Source of the DNA: Candidatus Brocadia sp.
Lineage (GTDB): Bacteria > Planctomycetota > Brocadiia > Brocadiales > Brocadiaceae
Assembly: GCA_021650915.1 (NCBI GenBank)
Contig: CP091279.1
Span: 1,230,001-1,262,000 of the forward strand
DNA: 32,000 bases
Direction of reading: 5' to 3'
The notes under the pieces are model-generated. The model searched no databases and had not been told where the DNA came from. It saw only the letters and a program-made list of their open reading frames with translations. A program made the position numbers and the translations under genes. This document shows, one piece after another, positions 2,102 to 30,326 of the stretch (the first letter of the stretch is position 1; every line of letters starts with the position of its first letter).

Positions 2102-3199
2102 TTAAAATACCCGATAGTACAGATCCCGCTGTCTTGCCGTGTATCCAAGGTCGTTGATAAGGAATTCAATTTCATCTTTGCCCATCTGATAGCTGACTCC
2201 GGCCGCCCGAACGACATTTTCTTCAATCATGGTGCTGCCCATGTCGTTGGCGCCACATTTCAAAGAGAGCTGCGCAATTTTAGCCCCCTGGGTTACCCAC
2301 GATGCCTGAATGTTGGAAATATTGTCCAGGTAGAGACGCGCTACGGCAAGGGTTTTCAGGTAATCATAACTCCCGATGAGTCCCATGTCCTGATATTGCG
2401 AAGAGAGGAAAGGATCCAACTGGGTATTCCTCGGCTGGAATGTCCAGGCAATAAAGGCAGTGAAACCGCCCGTTTCATCCTGGACGCCTCGGATCTTTTC
2501 GAGGTGTTCGATGCGTTCTTCTATGGTTTCGATGTGCCCAAACATCATGGTTGCCGTGGTGCGCATGCCAAGCTTATGCGCCTCGCGCATGACGTCAAGC
2601 CATTCCTGCGCCGTGCACTTGTTTGGACTCAGAAGACTGCGGCACCGGTCGACCAGGATTTCAGCGCCACCGCCAGGAATCGAGTCGAGTCCGGCGTCCT
2701 TAAGCCTTTCTATGACGTCACGAACAGGAATACCCTGCAATTTCGAGAAATGCACAATCTCCGGCGGAGAAAAGGCATGGATATGGACGGCAAATTCCTT
2801 CTTTATGGACATCAGAAGGTCCGTGTAAAAATCCAGGATTAACGACGGATGCAGCCCGCCCTGCATGAGGATTTGCCGCCCTCCCAGGGACAAGGTTTCT
2901 TCAATCTTTTTAAACAAGGCATCCCGGGGAATGACGTAGCCGTCACGGTGTTCTGACGTCTTATAAAAGGCGCAGAATTTACAACCCGACGTACAGATAT
3001 TGGTGTAATTTATATTTCGGTCGATGATGTACGTACGGTAATTTTCCGGATGCTTCCTCTTACAAACTTCATCCGCCGCTATCCCAAGAATGGTAATGTC
3101 CTTGACCGAAAAGAGCCTTATACCCTCCTCCGGAGAGAGTCTCTTGCCATGAATCGATTTTTCGATGATTTCTTCGATCTCACAGGATATCGTATCCAT
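2102..3199 (-). CDS. mqnC: Radical-SAM menaquinone (futalosine pathway) enzyme, MqnC-like (MqnC vs MqnE not resolvable by eye)
   Basis: 365 aa with the radical-SAM cluster motif CTSGCKFCAF. MMFGHIETIEERIEHL and DETGGFTAFIAWTFQP are typical of the CofH/MqnC/MqnE clade. It lies next to mqnA. Confidence 0.65.
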   Translation of the reverse strand: MDTISCEIEEIIEKSIHGKRLSPEEGIRLFSVKDITILGIAADEVCKRKHPENYRTYIIDRNINYTNICTSGCKFCAFYKTSEHRDGYVIPRDALFKKIEETLSLGGRQILMQGGLHPSLILDFYTDLLMSIKKEFAVHIHAFSPPEIVHFSKLQGIPVRDVIERLKDAGLDSIPGGGAEILVDRCRSLLSPNKCTAQEWLDVMREAHKLGMRTTATMMFGHIETIEERIEHLEKIRGVQDETGGFTAFIAWTFQPRNTQLDPFLSSQYQDMGLIGSYDYLKTLAVARLYLDNISNIQASWVTQGAKIAQLSLKCGANDMGSTMIEENVVRAAGVSYQMGKDEIEFLINDLGYTARQRDLYYRVF

Positions 3200-13094: not shown

Positions 13095-13125
13095 CTGTAG
13101 AGCGACGAGGCTCGTCGCTCTACAG
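13095..13125. repeat. REP-like perfect palindrome (family TAGAGCGACGAG-n-CTCGTCGCTCTA), copy 1
   Basis: CTGTAGAGCGACGAG-G-CTCGTCGCTCTACAG. The same core recurs at 26857-26881. Confidence 0.8.
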
Positions 13126-13395
13126 TAAGCAGGTCGCCAAAGGCCTAATTAATTAGCAACACGGTCTTAAATCTTCGCCTTCCCCAGTCCTCTGCAAGAT
13201 TAAAGCACCCAGATCCTAATGCCCTGCGTATTTGTTCAGTAAAAAAGTAGAGATCCCCGTTCTCCACCAGACCAGCAAGACAATTATCAATTTACCAGAT
13301 TTCTGTCTCAACCCATTCACAATTCTTCATTCTTCATTAACTTCCAATCCCTTCTACATCAGGTCAATGATTCCTACAGTATCGCTTGCAGCCGC

Positions 13396-13915: not shown

Positions 13916-14150
13916 GATATTCCATAACGCAGCACAGCCGCAACCAACTTTCCGTTGTGAAAGCGGGAGATTGCTTCGGACAAGACCCTCGCAATGACAC
14001 TGGCTATGCCTTTGATGACATACGGTACGTTGTCATTGCGAGCGGAGCGAAGCAATCCTTCTCTTATAAATAAACGGTACCTTCTGATAAGGAGTAAATA
14101 GGGTTGTAAAAACTTGCAAAAAAAGAAAGATTTTATACGGCAATATTATA
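13916..14150. repeat. ~235-bp repeat element, copy 1 (inverted relative to copy 2 at 19751-19987)
   Basis: By-eye alignment of its reverse complement to 19751-19987 gives high identity over the whole length (roughly 85%, estimated by eye, not computed). It contains two inverted GTCATTGCGAG...GAAGCAATC units (13969-13998 and 14032-14057). Confidence 0.8.
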
Positions 14151-14344: not shown

Positions 14345-14647
14345 CCAATAGCATTCCGCTGTAAAAACTTTTTAAAAAGTTCCTTCGCGACCCCCCTTTG
14401 TCTCTCTTTGCTAAGGGAGATTCAAGATGGTTGTCTCCCCTTCTCAGGACAGTTGGTTGCGGTGTATGGATTCTGCAATCTCTTTGATGCCGTCATTCAT
14501 GAGGCATTCGGCAACTTTTTATCATAAGACAAAACTCACCCTTGGATCCCCTCCCTGGCGGGGAATTCTTTCGTCCCCTCCTGAGAATGGGTTGGGGGTG
14601 TGTAAGGCAGAAACAGAAAGTTTGAAATTCCTATACATCCGGGTATG

Positions 14648-19750: not shown

Positions 19751-19987
19751 TATAATATTACTGTGTAAAAACTTCTTTTTTTTGTAAGTTTTTTCGCAAC
19801 CCTATCTACCCTTTATCAGAAGGTGCAGTTTGTTTATGAAAGAAGGATTGCTTCGTTTCGCTCGCAATGACAACGTACCGTATGTCATCAAAGACATAGC
19901 CAGTGTCATTGCGAGGGTCTTGTCCGAAGCAATCTCCCGCTTTCACAACGAGGAATTGGTTGCGGCGGTGCCGCGTTATGAATAATA
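19751..19987. repeat. ~235-bp repeat element, copy 2 (inverted relative to 13916-14150)
   Basis: See copy 1. Short AT-rich terminal inverted repeats ATAATATTA (19752-19760) and TAATATTAT (19984-19992) give it a MITE-like look. Confidence 0.8.
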
Positions 19988-23240: not shown

Positions 23241-23346
23241 CCGTGTGACCGCAAACAAAGTTGCCAAAGGCCTAATTAAAAGTTTTTTGCAGGCGATGAA
23301 ACACAAAGGTCACCGAATGCATAATCATCCATTCGGTAACTTCGCT

Positions 23347-25779: not shown

Positions 25780-25929
25780 GTTCAGCCACGAAAAACGAAT
25801 ACCTTTGAGTTGGATTTTTCGCTTCGTTCAGAATAACAAACGGTGTCATTCTGAGGGAGTGAAACGGACGAAGAATTTCGGTTTGAAATTCCTGTACGTT
25901 TAATTAGGCCTTCGGCGACTTTTTATCCG

Positions 25930-26647
25930 ATAGGGGTAGGGAAGGCTTTCGCCTCCCCTCCCTCCGAACCATACAGGCGGATCTCCCGCATACGGCTCTC
26001 CAGTCAGCGGTTACCCCTTCGGGATTGACCGTTGAAAATATAAATTGCGGATACGTGAACAATTCATACCTCATAATGATGACATCGATTCTCATCATTC
26101 ACCCTATGCAAGCCGTCAACAGGTAGTCCGCTATAAGCCAGGTTCAAATCCGTTTCTACGGATTTCTCCAACTTGTTTAGGCATTTCTGCCACTCACCTT
26201 GGTTTGTCTTCCCAGCTTACCCACTTCATACCTCCACCTTCCTGCCTCCCTTCGCTCCACGTCCATTACGATGCTTCTTCGCTCTTATGAAGGCTCTGAC
26301 TCCTGACTTTGTCACTCCCTCTGTCAGGTATCCCTGATTCATGCACCTTGTCTTCCTGCCATTCCGTCTCCAACCACCCATTGCTCCCTATCATCGCTTT
26401 ATCACGCTACCCCTCAGCTTGATAGACTTCCTTCTTTTTCCAAAAAGGTCTGGGCTTCACCACTCTCTAGCAGGCTCGCCGTTACAACAGGCCGAATCGA
26501 GTTCGTCATTCTACGGACTAGCTTTTCACCTCCCGTTGCTCCCCACCCCATCTCACGATGACGCAGTTACGGTCGGTTACAGGGTTGGAAAGCGTTTTCC
26601 CTGAAGGGGACTTTCACCCCTCTGACATTGTGCACTCTCAGGCGCAC
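25930..26647 (-). mobile_element. ORF-less group II intron (ribozyme only, 718 nt)
   Basis: The minus-strand 5' end is GTGCGCCTGAGAGTGCACAATGTCAGAGGGGTGAAAGTCCCC (from 26647). Domain V is GAGCCGTATGCGGGAGATCCGCCTGTATGGTTC (25998-25966). Domain VI is GGGAGGGGAGGC-GAAA-GCCTTCCCT[A]CCCCTAT, with the bulged A 7 nt from the 3' end at 25930. No RT-like ORF in any frame. Confidence 0.8.
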
Positions 26648-26856
26648 TAGTGTGCAGACATATTAATTACAAATTATATATTGTGGACAATTTTAGCTAT
26701 ATCGCGCCGCAAAACAGCATTTATATGTTTCGTTATTATTAATCGTCTCATAATAGAACACACATTAAGCTGTCCGTTTAGCGCTTCAATATTGGAGAAG
26801 GAAAGCATACGACGAATCAATACAATTATGAGACCCTTAATAATATGTCTCTACAC

Positions 26857-26881
26857 TAGAGCGACGAGACTCGTCGCTCTA
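26857..26881. repeat. REP-like palindrome TAGAGCGACGAG-A-CTCGTCGCTCTA, copy 2
   Basis: Same core as 13095-13125. It lies 45 nt upstream of the symporter start codon. Confidence 0.8.
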
Positions 26882-27078: not shown

Positions 27079-29108
27079 GTGAGGACATTCCGCGGTGAGG
27101 GTGGGCGTGCCTTGAAGTATGGGATACCTGAGTGGTTGAAAATATCACCTCTGCGAGCCTAAATCCTCGTAGAGAAGTTTGTACCTATGCGTATACAAAG
27201 GAGCAATCCGTGTGCGTAGAAGGATAGCGTATTCCCGTGAGGGGTATGACGGAGTTACGAGGTACAGACGACCTTTTGGGGTGTATGAATATGGCGTGTT
27301 AGTTCGTGCCAACTGCCCTTTCTCAGTAAAGCACTGACAAATGTCCTTGTTGGAGATGATGCAAGCGATTCGGTGAAAACATCTCTGGATAATGCGTTTG
27401 AACATACATCACGAAGGGAAAAGGGGTAATCCATATGACCGGGGGAGGACTTACGTCTTGGGAAGAAATTCCCTAACAGCGAGGTATAAGGGAAATCCGA
27501 AATCCAAGCTGTATGAGATGGTGACGGACGACTGGCTCTCACAGGTCTGTCTTTGAAGTCGTCAGCAGTGCTCATAATAGTTTCTGGTGTAAGCCGGAAA
27601 TGAAGGGGCATAACCGTAGTGGAGTTGATGAAAGTGGTAGATTGAATACGTTCCATGAGAAAAGAGACTCTTTGCATGGGCAAGTAGTAGCAAGAGCCTC
27701 TCTTGTTTTGCCTCTGTCAGGAGGAATCTCGACTCAGGAAACACGATTGACAAGTCTATTATCCGGAATCAATCAAAAGGAACATATCGGGAGATGCTTA
27801 AGTATCATTCTTTAAGAGACAAGGTATTCAGTCTGAGAAACCTTTATGCGGCTTTTGGGCACGTAAAGAAGAATAAAGGCAAGGCTGGTCTCGACAGGGT
27901 AAGTATTAAGCAGTTTGAAAGTGACCTTGAGAATAATCTACAAGCTATTCACAAGGAACTGAAAACCGCCATATACAACCCTGCGCCCGTCTTAAGGGTC
28001 TACATTCCCAAAGGCAGGCATGGCAAGAGACCTCTTGGCATTCCCATTGTCAAGGACAGGGTAGTACAGCAGGCGTTCAGACAAATCATAGAGCCAATAT
28101 TCGAGAAAGAATTCTCGGATAACAGCTTTGGATTTCGTCCAAACAGATGCTGTCATGATGCTATCAAACGGATTGAACAGTATAAGCAGCAAGGGTATCG
28201 GAACATTTTGGACGCCGATATAAAGGCGTTCTATGATACCATACCTCACAAGCTTATCATGAACTCCTTGCGTGAGAAAATTGCTGACGGATGGGTGTTG
28301 AACAGTATCGAGAACATGCTCAAGGCAGGGGTCATGGAGGACGGCATCGTGCATGAGACAAATCAAGGCACTCCGCAAGGAGGCGTCATATCTCCCTTGC
28401 TTGCAAACCTTATCGGTGACATCATCGACAAGGAGCTTGAAAAGGCAGAATATAAATTTGTCCGCTATGCCGATGACTTCGTTGTCATGACTAAAACGAA
28501 AGAAGAACTCCCTGCCGCCCTTCAGTACGTCAAGGAAATCATCGAAGGGAAACTTGAAATGAAGCTGAACGAGGATAAAACCAGGCTCACCAACTTCAAA
28601 CGAGGCTTCCGGTTTCTCGGATATAATTTCATGGGCAAGAACAAGGGTGTAAGCATGAAATCCCTGGACAAACTCAAGGACGCCGTCAGGGACATCACCA
28701 AACGCACACAAGGCGTCAACCTGCAAGCCGTCATTGATACATTAAATCCTGTCATAAGGGGACATGTCAACTATTTTCGGCTGGGCAATGTACAAACGGT
28801 ATATCGCTCGTTAGACTGCTGGGTACGCATGAGACTGAGAAGTTTCAAGTTTTCGAGAAAATGGAAAACTGACAACAAACGTTTCCCGGTACACCGATTC
28901 TTTAAGATGGGGTTACTCTCATTTGAAAGAGAATTTCTTAAGGCACGTGCAAAGGCATGATAGGTTACTTTTCTCTGCTCCAGAGCAACACTATGGGGTC
29001 GCTAACTACGGGAAAGCCGTATGGTTTAAAAGGATACTTTGTCACGTTGTCCAAAGTATCTGGCGACGATTGGGGGTTGGAGGCGATTCGCCTCCTCCCT
29101 ACCAGCTA
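27079..29108 (+). mobile_element. Group II intron with intron-encoded RT/maturase, inserted in the AGCS symporter gene (boundaries approximate)
   Basis: The RT ORF lies in the expected DIV position. The DVI-like hairpin GGAGGCG-ATT-CGCCTCC is followed by TCCCT[A]CCAGCTA (29077-29108). In-frame GTGAG candidates for the 5' end are at 27079 and 27095, and a canonical GTGCG is at 27212. A DV-like AAGCCGTATGG is at 29014-29024, but I could not fold a canonical 34-nt DV by eye. Confidence 0.7.
27794..28960 (+). CDS. Group II intron reverse transcriptase/maturase (no endonuclease domain)
   Basis: 388 aa. RT blocks are RPLGIPIVKDRVVQQA, FGFRPNRCCHDA, LDADIKAFYDTIPH, GTPQGGVISPLLANL and VRYADDFVVM. 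The maturase X block is LNPVIRGHVNYFRLGN. There is no HNH/En extension. Confidence 0.9.
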   Translation: MLKYHSLRDKVFSLRNLYAAFGHVKKNKGKAGLDRVSIKQFESDLENNLQAIHKELKTAIYNPAPVLRVYIPKGRHGKRPLGIPIVKDRVVQQAFRQIIEPIFEKEFSDNSFGFRPNRCCHDAIKRIEQYKQQGYRNILDADIKAFYDTIPHKLIMNSLREKIADGWVLNSIENMLKAGVMEDGIVHETNQGTPQGGVISPLLANLIGDIIDKELEKAEYKFVRYADDFVVMTKTKEELPAALQYVKEIIEGKLEMKLNEDKTRLTNFKRGFRFLGYNFMGKNKGVSMKSLDKLKDAVRDITKRTQGVNLQAVIDTLNPVIRGHVNYFRLGNVQTVYRSLDCWVRMRLRSFKFSRKWKTDNKRFPVHRFFKMGLLSFEREFLKARAKA

Positions 29109-30326
29109 GGGGAAGGGGATATCAGCCCGTTCCAGGCCGTAAACGTCGCGCTTGGCGGAACGGTGGGGGTTGGGAATATCGCAGGTGTGGCGACGGCTAT
29201 TGCGGCGGGAGGACCCGGCGCAATCTTCTGGATGTGGGTATCGGGAGTTCTCGGGATGGGCACCAAGTTCTTTGAGGTCGCCCTTGGCATTCACTACCGG
29301 AGAAGGGAACCGGGCGGATCGATGGTCGGCGGCCCTATGACGTACATCAGCTGCGGTATGGGTCCGGCATGGAGATGGTTCGCATTGGTATTTGCACTGC
29401 TCGGTGCACTGACGGCATTCGTAATCGGGAACATGGTGCAATCGAATTCCGTAGCCGAAGGACTCAGCTATTTTCATATCCCGACCTGGATGACTGGCAC
29501 AGGACTTCTCGTTTTTGTCGGGCTGGTAACTATTGGCGGGATCCAGAGGATTGCCCACGTGGCTATCGTCTGTGTCCCGTTTATGTGCATCGTTTACATG
29601 CTGGGCGCCCTTGCAATTATTTTATCGAATATCGCCTCTATGCCATCCGCACTGATGATGATCGTGCAGGATGCATTCCGGCCAACGACGGCTATCGGGG
29701 GATTTGCCGGTGCAGCGCTCATGCAGACGATCCGTTACGGGATTGCCGGAGGTGTTTTCAGCAATGAGGCAGGGCTGGGAAGCGCCCCGATCGCCCACGC
29801 AACTGCCAGGACCGATTACCCTGTACGCCAGGCATTCTGGGGTATGATGGAGGTGTTTGTCGATACGATCATCATGTGCACGGCAACGGCGCTCGTAATC
29901 ATTCTGAGCGACGCCTGGAAATCCGGTGAAACCGGGGCATCATTGACAATTCATGGTTTCTCATCACTGTTTGGCATAGAGGCTGGTTCTGCCATTGTCG
30001 CCTTCTGTATGGCGCTCACCGCTTACGACACCAACATTGCCTGGTGCTTTTATGGGGAGACGTGCGCCGCATATCTCCTGGGTCATGGCCACATCGTCAG
30101 ATATACTTACCGTTTCCTGTGGCTGCCCCTTGTGCTGGCAGGGGCAGTGGTTAAACTGGATATGGTATGGAGTATTGCGGATACCATGAACGGTCTGATG
30201 GCAATACCCAACCTCATCGCACTGGTAGTGCTTGCGCCGGTTGTGGTGCGTCTGATCCGTGATTTCGAAGGAACATTTTCCCGTTCTCACGGTGTCGCTG
30301 GTCTGCACAAAACCCCTCATTCGTGA
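29109..30326 (+). CDS. Alanine/glycine:cation symporter (AGCS family), exon 2
   Basis: GEGDISPFQAVNVALGGTVGVGNIAGVATAIAAGGPGAIFWMWVSGVLGM is the AGCS signature region, followed by multiple TM segments to the stop at 30326. The exon start could be 29103, 29109 or 29110. Confidence 0.8.
   Translation, partial: GEGDISPFQAVNVALGGTVGVGNIAGVATAIAAGGPGAIFWMWVSGVLGMGTKFFEVALGIHYRRREPGGSMVGGPMTYISCGMGPAWRWFALVFALLGALTAFVIGNMVQSNSVAEGLSYFHIPTWMTGTGLLVFVGLVTIGGIQRIAHVAIVCVPFMCIVYMLGALAIILSNIASMPSALMMIVQDAFRPTTAIGGFAGAALMQTIRYGIAGGVFSNEAGLGSAPIAHATARTDYPVRQAFWGMMEVFVDTIIMCTATALVIILSDAWKSGETGASLTIHGFSSLFGIEAGSAIVAFCMALTAYDTNIAWCFYGETCAAYLLGHGHIVRYTYRFLWLPLVLAGAVVKLDMVWSIADTMNGLMAIPNLIALVVLAPVVVRLIRDFEGTFSRSHGVAGLHKTPHS

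Follow-up and report, generated by a model that had tools for sequence, protein, structure and literature searches.

An open reading frame-less, class C-like group II intron downstream of hemB in Candidatus Brocadia sp., a probable non-autonomous deletion derivative

The class C (IIC) group II introns include B.h.I1, O.i.I1, GsI-IIC, and the E. rectale IIC intron. Targeting in this class involves recognition of a DNA hairpin, short pairings between exon-binding and intron-binding sites (EBS and IBS, respectively), and insertion after terminators (PMC12584367, PMC4424553). Bacterial group II introns that lack an open reading frame (ORF) have been reviewed (PMC4424553), and pipelines such as that of PMC8919778 catalogue them. 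Natural examples that rely on a reverse transcriptase (RT) supplied in trans are the derivatives found in Thermosynechococcus elongatus (PMC2882425) and the dnaN introns of Trichodesmium, as cited in PMC12584367. Here, we describe an ORF-less group II intron of 718 nt on the minus strand (25930..26647) of a 32,000-nt stretch of Candidatus Brocadia sp. DNA (GenBank assembly GCA_021650915.1, contig CP091279.1, positions 1,230,001 to 1,262,000; hereafter "the window"), which is probably a deletion derivative of an RT-encoding, class C-like retroelement.

Like class C introns, the window element has a small domain I (DI; 315 nt), and it belongs to a family whose members enter immediately behind a DNA hairpin or terminator, using short EBS1-IBS1 and IBS3 pairings. 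The RTs of its relatives have no endonuclease domain and, among solved structures, are closest to the GsI-IIC RT, and there is a partial match to the Rfam model RF02001, which we take to be a DI model of the O. iheyensis type. Unlike class C introns, the window element has no RT ORF, its DI scores at or below the RF02001 cut-off, and its present 5′ exon has no hairpin, apparently owing to a later insertion. Furthermore, its domain V (DV) carries an AGC triad, unlike the CGC triad of O.i.I1.

With the T. elongatus and Trichodesmium introns, the element shares an internally deleted RT ORF, a retained ribozyme, the coexistence of RT-encoding introns within one genome, and the presence of more than one copy. 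However, those introns are of the CL/IIB type, lie in genes where their splicing matters to the host, and obtain their helper RT from a closely related intron, whereas the window element is IIC-like, intergenic, and antisense, and the only RT seen close by comes from another RNA family. The Clostridium tetani intron C.te.I1 (PMC4424553) is likewise a bacterial ORF-less intron without an identified cognate RT, but it comes from a genome with no intron RT gene at all and self-splices robustly in vitro, whereas RT genes are abundant in the genus Brocadia. There is also a likeness to miniature inverted-repeat transposable elements (MITEs) and other non-autonomous transposable-element derivatives, in that the cis-acting parts are kept, the enzyme gene is lost, and near-identical copies are scattered; unlike in MITEs, the cis-acting part is a predicted self-splicing ribozyme and not a pair of terminal inverted repeats (TIRs). 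The window element adds a class C-like example to a rare, but already known, kind.

Boundaries and architecture of the ORF-less intron

Judged by homology and covariation, the segment running from 26647 down to 25930 is a real and complete group II ribozyme that lacks an RT gene. The Rfam model of DV and domain VI (DVI), RF00029, matched 26000-25930 with 51.5 bits (E=1.6e-7), well above its gathering score of 40, and this was its single match in the 32-kb window. In the resulting alignment, DV occupies 25966..25998 on the minus strand, with a 2-nt bulge and with the AGC triad and the GAGA loop that the original prediction had read by eye at the same place. DVI (25930..25965, minus strand) has its bulged adenosine at 25937, followed, as had also been proposed, by the 7 nt that lead to the 3′ splice site, and closes with CCCUACCCCUAU, which is conserved in the family. 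The predicted GUGYG-type 5′ end is present as GTGCGCC at 26647, followed by GGTGAAAGTCC, and the 3′ end is CCCTACCCCTAT, whose last base is at 25930. The terminal motifs are GUGCG at 26647-26643 and CUAU at 25933-25930, in agreement with a GUGYG start and an AY end. Homologous introns in other genomes, more than 10 of them, have the same two ends. Because these relatives share 5′ GTGCG(C/T)C...GGTG(A/G)AAGTCC and 3′ CCCTACCCCTAT followed by C, the boundaries drawn originally are those of the family; in addition, metagenome copies of the element diverge from the window at 25929/25930.

For the upstream domains, Rfam gave a borderline answer. Under permissive thresholds, RF02001 aligned to 26562-26391 with 30.9 bits (E=0.002), against a cut-off of 32 bits. 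We also built an alignment, A1, in which the 5′-most ~440 nt of the element were set against eight relatives. RNAalifold found 88 consensus pairs in DI and domain II (DII) of A1, 61 of them with compensatory double changes. The paired state was realized in 92.6% of cells, compared with 73.6% after shuffling (0 of 500 shuffles reached the observed value) and 33-45% when the pairing partner was slid by 1-3 columns. Covariation in A1 is strong, and it is by covariation that DI through domain III (DIII) are recognized here as those of a group II ribozyme; on Rfam alone, the assignment, for which the original prediction had sought covariance-model support, would be borderline. The window copy retains 80 of the 88 pairs, and the RT-encoding relatives retain 77-87; its DI and DII are therefore no more decayed than those of the autonomous copies.

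DI spans intron positions 1-315 (26333..26647, minus strand) and is closed by long-range helices 6-24 / 296-315; it rests on the A1 covariation and on the RF02001 alignment at 26391-26562. Within it, the putative EBS1 terminal loop, CUAGAGAG, lies at 26463..26470 (minus strand), in a column that covaries with the end of the 5′ exon. DII is a short hairpin at positions 316-350 (26298..26332, minus strand) corresponding to A1 helix 14, in which 9 of 12 pairs show compensatory changes. The J2/3 junction (GGAGUCAGAGCC..CAUA) and DIII were assigned to 26247..26297 (minus strand) from conserved A1 columns and our reading of the alignment. By the same reading, the terminal hairpin of DIII, for which the family consensus is N5-GUAAU-N5′, pairs in the window copy only in a shifted register. 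Overall, the predicted self-splicing core is intact-looking.

Domain IV (DIV) is reduced to a stub of ~245 nt, as the original prediction had supposed, covering positions ~402-645 (26003..26246, minus strand) and holding no RT-like ORF. In studied group II introns, the 5′ part of DIV contains the primary binding site of the RT and the start of its translation. The stub opens with the family-conserved CAGGAAGGUGGA, after which comes a Shine-Dalgarno (SD) arrangement, GGAGG-N0-AUG (ATG at 26229-26227). The frame that follows reads MKWVSWEDKPR, a stop, and VAEMPKQVGEIRRNGFEPGL, i.e., ~33 decayed codons with an in-frame stop, and can be aligned with the RT N-terminus of the relatives (...GGKW(Y/F)SL(I/M)DKV...NKG..GVD). 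A hidden Markov model (HMM) of that N-terminus scored 2.7 bits on the stub, a value matched, in any frame, by 19 of 1000 dinucleotide shuffles (p~0.02). At the far end, the last RT codons (QSRRGNR and the stop) can be recognized at 26027-26004 (positions 621-644) by nucleotide homology alone, and the ~170 nt in between are AT-rich filler. We also looked in the stub for a C-terminal relic of the RT and dropped the idea when the C-terminal HMM proved negative. Searches of the 718-nt segment by tblastn with 14 related RTs and the window's own RT found no RT or maturase similarity in any frame, which bears out the earlier statement that no frame encodes such motifs. The longest ORF in the segment has 87 aa; neither this spurious ORF nor the window RT has a record in the assembly index. 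As only N-terminal traces and the last codons remain, we conclude that the RT ORF probably underwent a near-complete internal deletion. The original prediction had held that frameshifted RT remnants would make this just a decayed ordinary intron. This applies in part: a weak remnant is present as the SD-ATG with its decayed codons, and another as the last codons, but the ribozyme core appears not to have decayed with them.

Relatives and further copies

The exact DV 31-mer had no match in 185,579 GTDB representative genomes. However, 120 loci were retrieved with a degenerate DV pattern that left the loop and the bulge unspecified, and these served as our source of relatives. When the 718 nt were compared with them by BLASTN, collinear similarity extended over positions ~1-420 and 616-718. 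In many loci, including L071, L080, L078, L013, L123, L041 (from a Kuenenia metagenome-assembled genome, or MAG), and L088, the two blocks are ~1.85 kb apart, and in these seven an RT ORF of 405-460 aa lies between them. The RTs of the relatives carry the RVT_1 and GIIM domains only, without an endonuclease domain. Compared with solved structures, the L071 RT was closest to the GsI-IIC RT (1.7e-65) and the E. rectale IIC RT (2e-61), and much further from the T.el4h RT (4e-40) and LtrA (3e-32). RF02001 scored 36.9 bits in L123, above the cut-off, and below gathering in five other relatives.

The relatives also reveal the type of site that the family occupies. The +1 exon nucleotide (IBS3) is a C in 13 of the 14 intact-ended relatives, as it is in the window copy. 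All 10 relatives with a readable 5′ exon have a GC-rich hairpin of 7-11 bp that ends 0-6 nt before the 5′ splice site, and the relatives' 45-nt 5′ exons fold at -8.7 to -22.5 kcal/mol. In L078, L013, L071, L042, L106, and L088, the EBS1 loop (A1 columns 185-196) can pair with the 4-6 nucleotides that end the exon; this short covariation between loop and exon identifies the pairing as EBS1-IBS1 of the length expected for IIC. For EBS2-IBS2, our limited comparison found no A1 column consistently complementary to exon positions -7 to -13, and a possible GGCGU/ACGCC pairing in L078 overlaps the arm of the hairpin. With insertion next to a hairpin, a short EBS1-IBS1 pairing, and RTs closest to that of GsI-IIC, the family is best described as class C (IIC)-like.

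The window element is not the only family member to have lost its ORF. L106, from a Planctomycetota MAG, is an ORF-less relative of 695 nt with other deletion endpoints that still encodes RWPNDFFVKAGLYSL of the RT C-terminus; L120, L085, and L042 are further internal-deletion derivatives, again with other endpoints; and L047, L030, L020, and L068 are 3′ fragments truncated at their 5′ side. We regard deletion derivatives as common in the family, independent of one another, and present in other phyla as well, and the window element as one case of a recurrent process.

Although absent from the representative genomes, the exact DV 31-mer is present in three metagenome contigs from JGI. One of them, L125, holds the last 105 nt of the intron at 99% identity and then reaches the contig end. 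In L126, the identity is 97.9% over 193 nt (BLAST, positions 527-718), of which ~90 nt are specific to the stub, and the sequences diverge 5′ of ~529. The flanks and 3′ exons of L125 and L126 differ from those of the window; divergence begins at 25929/25930, and the +1 C is common to all copies. Upstream of its break, L126 has four CCAAGTTGTGCC repeats and a gene for an IS200-like Y1 transposase (Pfam 2.4e-15). According to these contigs, several sites were once occupied by the element or by its immediate ancestor; the contigs fall short of proving the movement of complete ORF-less copies. No complete second copy was recovered from the representative genomes or the metagenome contigs; no cognate RT-encoding parent appeared in these two collections or in the protein searches, the source genome itself not being among the sequences searched; and no copy was found at a conserved position in other species. 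The protein searches with the L071 and L041 RTs gave no Brocadia-named match among the best 120, which are mostly without organism names, so that this result is uninformative.

In L126, the run of CCAAGTTGTGCC just downstream of the transposase gene abuts the break in the intron at position 529. IS200-like Y1 transposase genes lie directly beside intron copies in L126 (193-1206) and in L129 (2058-2489).

Repeats often cause contig breaks. Contig LAQJ01000181.1 (GCA_000987375.1), which is 99.95% identical to the window over 7.6 kb, breaks inside the intron at window position 26427. In two samples, the Logan unitigs end at 25865 (25865/25866), 64 nt outside the intron, a position that the boundaries of the intron and of the MITE-like element described below do not explain.

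The insertion site

The original prediction placed the element in the spacer between hemB and a symporter gene, and this holds for the ORF-less intron. Unlike its relatives, the window copy is not preceded by a strong hairpin: its present 5′ exon folds at -2.1 kcal/mol and could pair with EBS1 through CUA only. However, a terminator-like, REP-like hairpin with perfect 12-bp arms, which we call hairpin A (TAGAGCGACGAG-AC-CTCGTCGCTCTA), lies nearby at 26857..26881, where it was matched by a scan for terminator-like structures. A second copy is at 13096-13124, and the general form of the two window copies is a perfect palindrome, TAGAGCGACGAG-NN-CTCGTCGCTCTA; there were no copies in the fetched loci. 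On the other side, the 3′ exon of the intron contains motif B (AATTAGGCCTTCGGCGAC), followed by T5, at 25902..25919 (plus strand). Motif B has four copies in the window, the others being at 13133-13152, 23257-23280, and 14496-14523, with the consensus AATTAGGCCTT(C/T)GGCGAC. At ~13.1 kb, motif B is separated from hairpin A by 10 nt. Downstream of hemB, the order is motif B, 10 nt (TTTTTATCCG), 927 nt, and hairpin A, and 927 nt is the 718 nt of the intron plus 209. Removal of 25930-26856 recreates the spacing seen at ~13.1 kb.

The additional 209 nt can be accounted for by a putative MITE-like insertion of 207 bp (26650..26856), with TIRs TAGTGTGCAGACATATTA and TAGTGTAGAGACATATTA, flanked by TA at 26648-26649 and TA at 26857-26858. 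Duplication of a TA is what IS630/mariner-type elements and their MITEs leave at their insertion sites. The TIRs are 18-23 bp long (inverted repeat I1, 23 nt, 87% complementary), their pattern gave 2 matches where 0.06 would be expected by chance, and the piece also holds an internal inverted repeat of 21 nt (26734-26754 / 26825-26845). It sits exactly at the 5′ splice junction, between hairpin A and the intron's 5′ end. No second copy of the element or its TIR was found elsewhere in the window or in 191 fetched loci. Excision of the 209-bp TA-flanked piece yields, on the minus strand, ...CUCGUCGCUCUA/GUGCGCC directly after hairpin A. At this reconstructed junction, IBS1 CUCUA, which ends hairpin A, pairs with UAGAG of EBS1 (5 bp), with C at +1, which is the canonical arrangement of the family; only after removal of the piece does the window copy lie next to a hairpin as class C introns do, whose hairpins belong to terminators or attC sites. 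We had initially taken the EBS1-IBS1 pairing as simply weak and the site as ectopic, and this reading was replaced by the reconstruction.

Hairpin A was thus probably the DNA site that the intron first targeted on the minus strand. The 3′ exon of L125 (CAACCGCAACTTTGAAATTCC) resembles CAGCCGCAACCTTGAAATTC, which follows hairpin A at 13.1 kb, and the L125 copy therefore probably also lies behind a hairpin-A element. As the MITE-like insertion would have cut the window copy off from its hairpin and from most of IBS1, this copy is probably no longer a good substrate for splicing or mobility, and we suspect that it serves no host function.

A hairpin-A site just upstream of the symporter ATG (26881/26882) is unoccupied. 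More generally, short repeated intergenic modules with a REP-like or terminator-like look, namely hairpin A, motif B (AATTAGGCCTTYGGCGAC, with a T-run after it), and TTTGAAATTCCTRTAC, occur in varied combinations at 13096-13152, 14496-14523, 23257-23280, 25902-25919, and 26857-26881, and also at 14621-14636 and 25882-25897.

On the whole, we consider it probable that a bacterial class C (IIC)-like group II retroelement gave rise to the segment by deletion, leaving it non-autonomous, and that the derivative came to lie at a hairpin target from which it was later cut off. An ordinary intron of this family would be ~1.85 kb long, encode an RT/maturase of ~410-450 aa without an endonuclease domain, and enter DNA immediately 3′ of a hairpin, by reverse splicing through short EBS1-IBS1 and IBS3 contacts. 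In the lineage of the window element, DIV has lost nearly the whole RT ORF, leaving DI-DIII, DV, DVI, and the ~245-nt stub, and mobilization would have depended on an RT supplied in trans. This copy would have inserted on the minus strand right after the terminator/REP-like hairpin A downstream of hemB. Later, the 207-bp TIR element may have entered the TA at the exon/intron junction, pushing the hairpin 209 nt away and leaving only CUA of IBS1.

The neighbouring RT-encoding intron and rival explanations

An RT-encoding intron lies 458 nt from the ORF-less one, slightly further than the ~430 nt estimated originally, and occupies 27105..29107 on the plus strand. The original prediction had placed it, too, in the spacer, but it lies inside the coding sequence of the Na+:alanine symporter, of which exon 1 is 26926 (ATG)-27104 and exon 2 is 29108-30326. 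Its ends were taken from independent copies (L127-L136) and from in-frame joining of the exons (…FRGEGG/GEGDISPFQ…), which is obtained only for 27105-29107 or for the shift-equivalent 27106-29108. With 27105-29107, the 5′ end would be GCGUG instead of GUGYG, and the 3′ end ...CCAGCU, with A at +1. The RT ORF (27794-28960, plus strand; 388 aa) contains RVT_1 and GIIM and is closest to the GsI-IIC RT (1e-78). IIC introns are normally intergenic and follow hairpins, and a position that splits the symporter gene is unusual for an RT of this lineage. At 98% identity, the protein matches one named [quoted passage not shown], whose cluster has members from Ca. Brocadia sp. and Ca. Brocadia fulgida, and a Ca. 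Brocadia sp. genome of 4.05 Mb contains 10 or more paralogues; a family with so many copies is presumably active. As the original prediction had surmised from the 5′ sequences, the two introns are clearly different: they share no nucleotide similarity; identity between the neighbour RT and the RTs found in relatives of the ORF-less intron is no more than 36-43%; what precedes the start codon of the neighbour RT is unlike CAGGAAGGUGGA; and the DIVa regions are unrelated. By these comparisons, the neighbour is a member of a different, multi-copy, IIC-derived RNA family. We also considered whether the two introns might be halves of one rearranged intron, which is unsupported, as each has its own 5′ end and DVI, and whether the ORF-less intron might donate DV to the neighbour. 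The latter idea was set aside, since the neighbour has its own DV homologue and its independent copies have no ORF-less partner.

The DV of the neighbour is itself unusual. Neither the window intron nor L127-L136 gave an RF00029 match, whereas L137, a canonical relative, scored 33 bits with RF00029 and 42 bits with RF02001. By homology with L137, the DV of the neighbour is present but appears to be interrupted by an insertion of ~35 nt; the domain lies at 28998-29067 (plus strand), with the insert at 29027-29061, and is followed by DVI at 29072-29103 (plus strand). The insert, a 9-10-bp hairpin with a conserved GUUGUC loop and short flanks, interrupts the lower helix on its 3′ strand, one pair above a CGC triad. 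Without it, the lower helix of DV is a perfect 9 bp, and there are also a UG bulge and an upper helix of 5 bp. The structure including the insert fits five diverged homologues (96.8% paired, as against ~40% in slid controls), and compensatory changes were seen in the upper helix as well as in the insert. The insertion was seen in the window, L127, L128, L129-L135, and L136. Pipelines based on DV, such as RF00029 searches, would therefore miss this family, and we found no paper describing an insertion in DV. A scan of viral_contigs with the 5′ strand of this DV gave 54 matches, all due to chance or unrelated. In the metagenome contig L130, a canonical group II intron (2590-2743, minus strand; RF00029 46.8 bits) has its 3′ end ~45 nt from a neighbour-type RT intron of the opposite strand, so that unrelated introns cluster head to tail there as they do in the window. 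Elsewhere in the window, an inverted repeat of ~236 bp with 88.6% identity links 19751-19984 (gltX-cysS region) with 13918-14150 (tRNA region), and one of its copies overlaps a called ORF of 49 aa.

Several observations weigh against the proposed deletion derivative or its details. DI lies ~1 bit under the RF02001 gathering score and is atypical for the curated IIC model, and most of the relatives miss the threshold too. The RT comparison covered solved structures, and the family may belong to class C or to another endonuclease-less class (such as D, E, or F), hence the label "IIC-like". The N-terminal RT relic is weak, suggestive mainly through its position and strand, and the MITE reading of the 209-bp piece draws on one copy. 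The contig end in L125 and the interruption in L126 are compatible with both an ORF-less and a full-length origin of these copies. The low RF02001 score, together with the many public-genome loci that hold only 3′ fragments of the same family, could even be taken to mean that the segment is a chance DV-like hairpin or an intron fragment. We reject this as scarcely credible, given the collinearity with full-length introns over positions 1-420 and 616-718, the strong covariation in A1, and the canonical 5′ and 3′ ends shared with relatives.

The original prediction offered trans-mobilization, or splicing by a non-cognate protein, and domestication as explanations for a ribozyme without a protein partner. 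If the element were a live non-autonomous retroelement, spliced and mobilized in trans by the RT of the neighbour family or by an unseen cognate RT, one could understand why its ribozyme pairs are kept as well as in the RT-encoding relatives, why the conserved 5′ segment of DIV is retained, and why near-identical 3′ ends occur at no fewer than two other loci, one with stub-specific sequence; sister copies of this kind would be expected under trans-mobilization. An IIC-type RT gene is close by, with its 10 or more paralogues in one Brocadia genome, and in nearly every case bacterial introns without an ORF are accompanied by related RT-encoding introns, which may act as trans helpers (PMC4424553). 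Nevertheless, we think a live element unlikely: the copy has been separated from its hairpin with IBS1 down to CUA, the terminal hairpin of DIII is off-register, and no complete second copy was recovered. Help from the neighbour RT in particular found no support, and because this RT is diverged, the two introns lack nucleotide similarity, and their DIVa regions differ, its action in trans is possible but has nothing positive in its favour. Domestication as a ribozyme or non-coding RNA that serves the host, e.g., by regulating hemB or the symporter, would accord with the intact catalytic domains and with a location between two housekeeping-type genes. It is, however, very improbable. The element is antisense to both genes; promoter and terminator scans gave no signal above shuffle expectation; the same element occurs with unrelated flanks, and no syntenic conservation was found; its 5′ junction carries a mobile-element-like insertion; and comparable deletion derivatives are sporadic in unrelated phyla. 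A deletion derivative that reached a hairpin target and was later cut off from it remains the explanation we favour.

The locus leaves the understanding of such elements unchanged, and the insertion in the DV of the neighbour may interest specialists more than the ORF-less intron itself. Spread of complete ORF-less copies by means of a borrowed RT would be of most interest, but it is a speculative and rather doubtful proposition that the 718-nt ribozyme, once its RT gene was gone, went on to reach hairpin-A/REP-type terminators of anammox bacteria with the RT of the abundant, structurally distinct neighbour family, in a cross-family trans-mobilization of a "MITE-like" group II intron. Nonetheless, ~1 kb of DNA in an anammox planctomycete (Brocadia) would record a whole life history, from hairpin targeting and loss of the RT to spread of the element or its ancestor to at least two other sites and inactivation by a mobile element, and it offers a simple comparative test in the restoration of a repeated spacer module. 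ORF-less introns of this kind are natural intermediates on the proposed route from a selfish retroelement to a splicing-only intron whose factors are supplied in trans.

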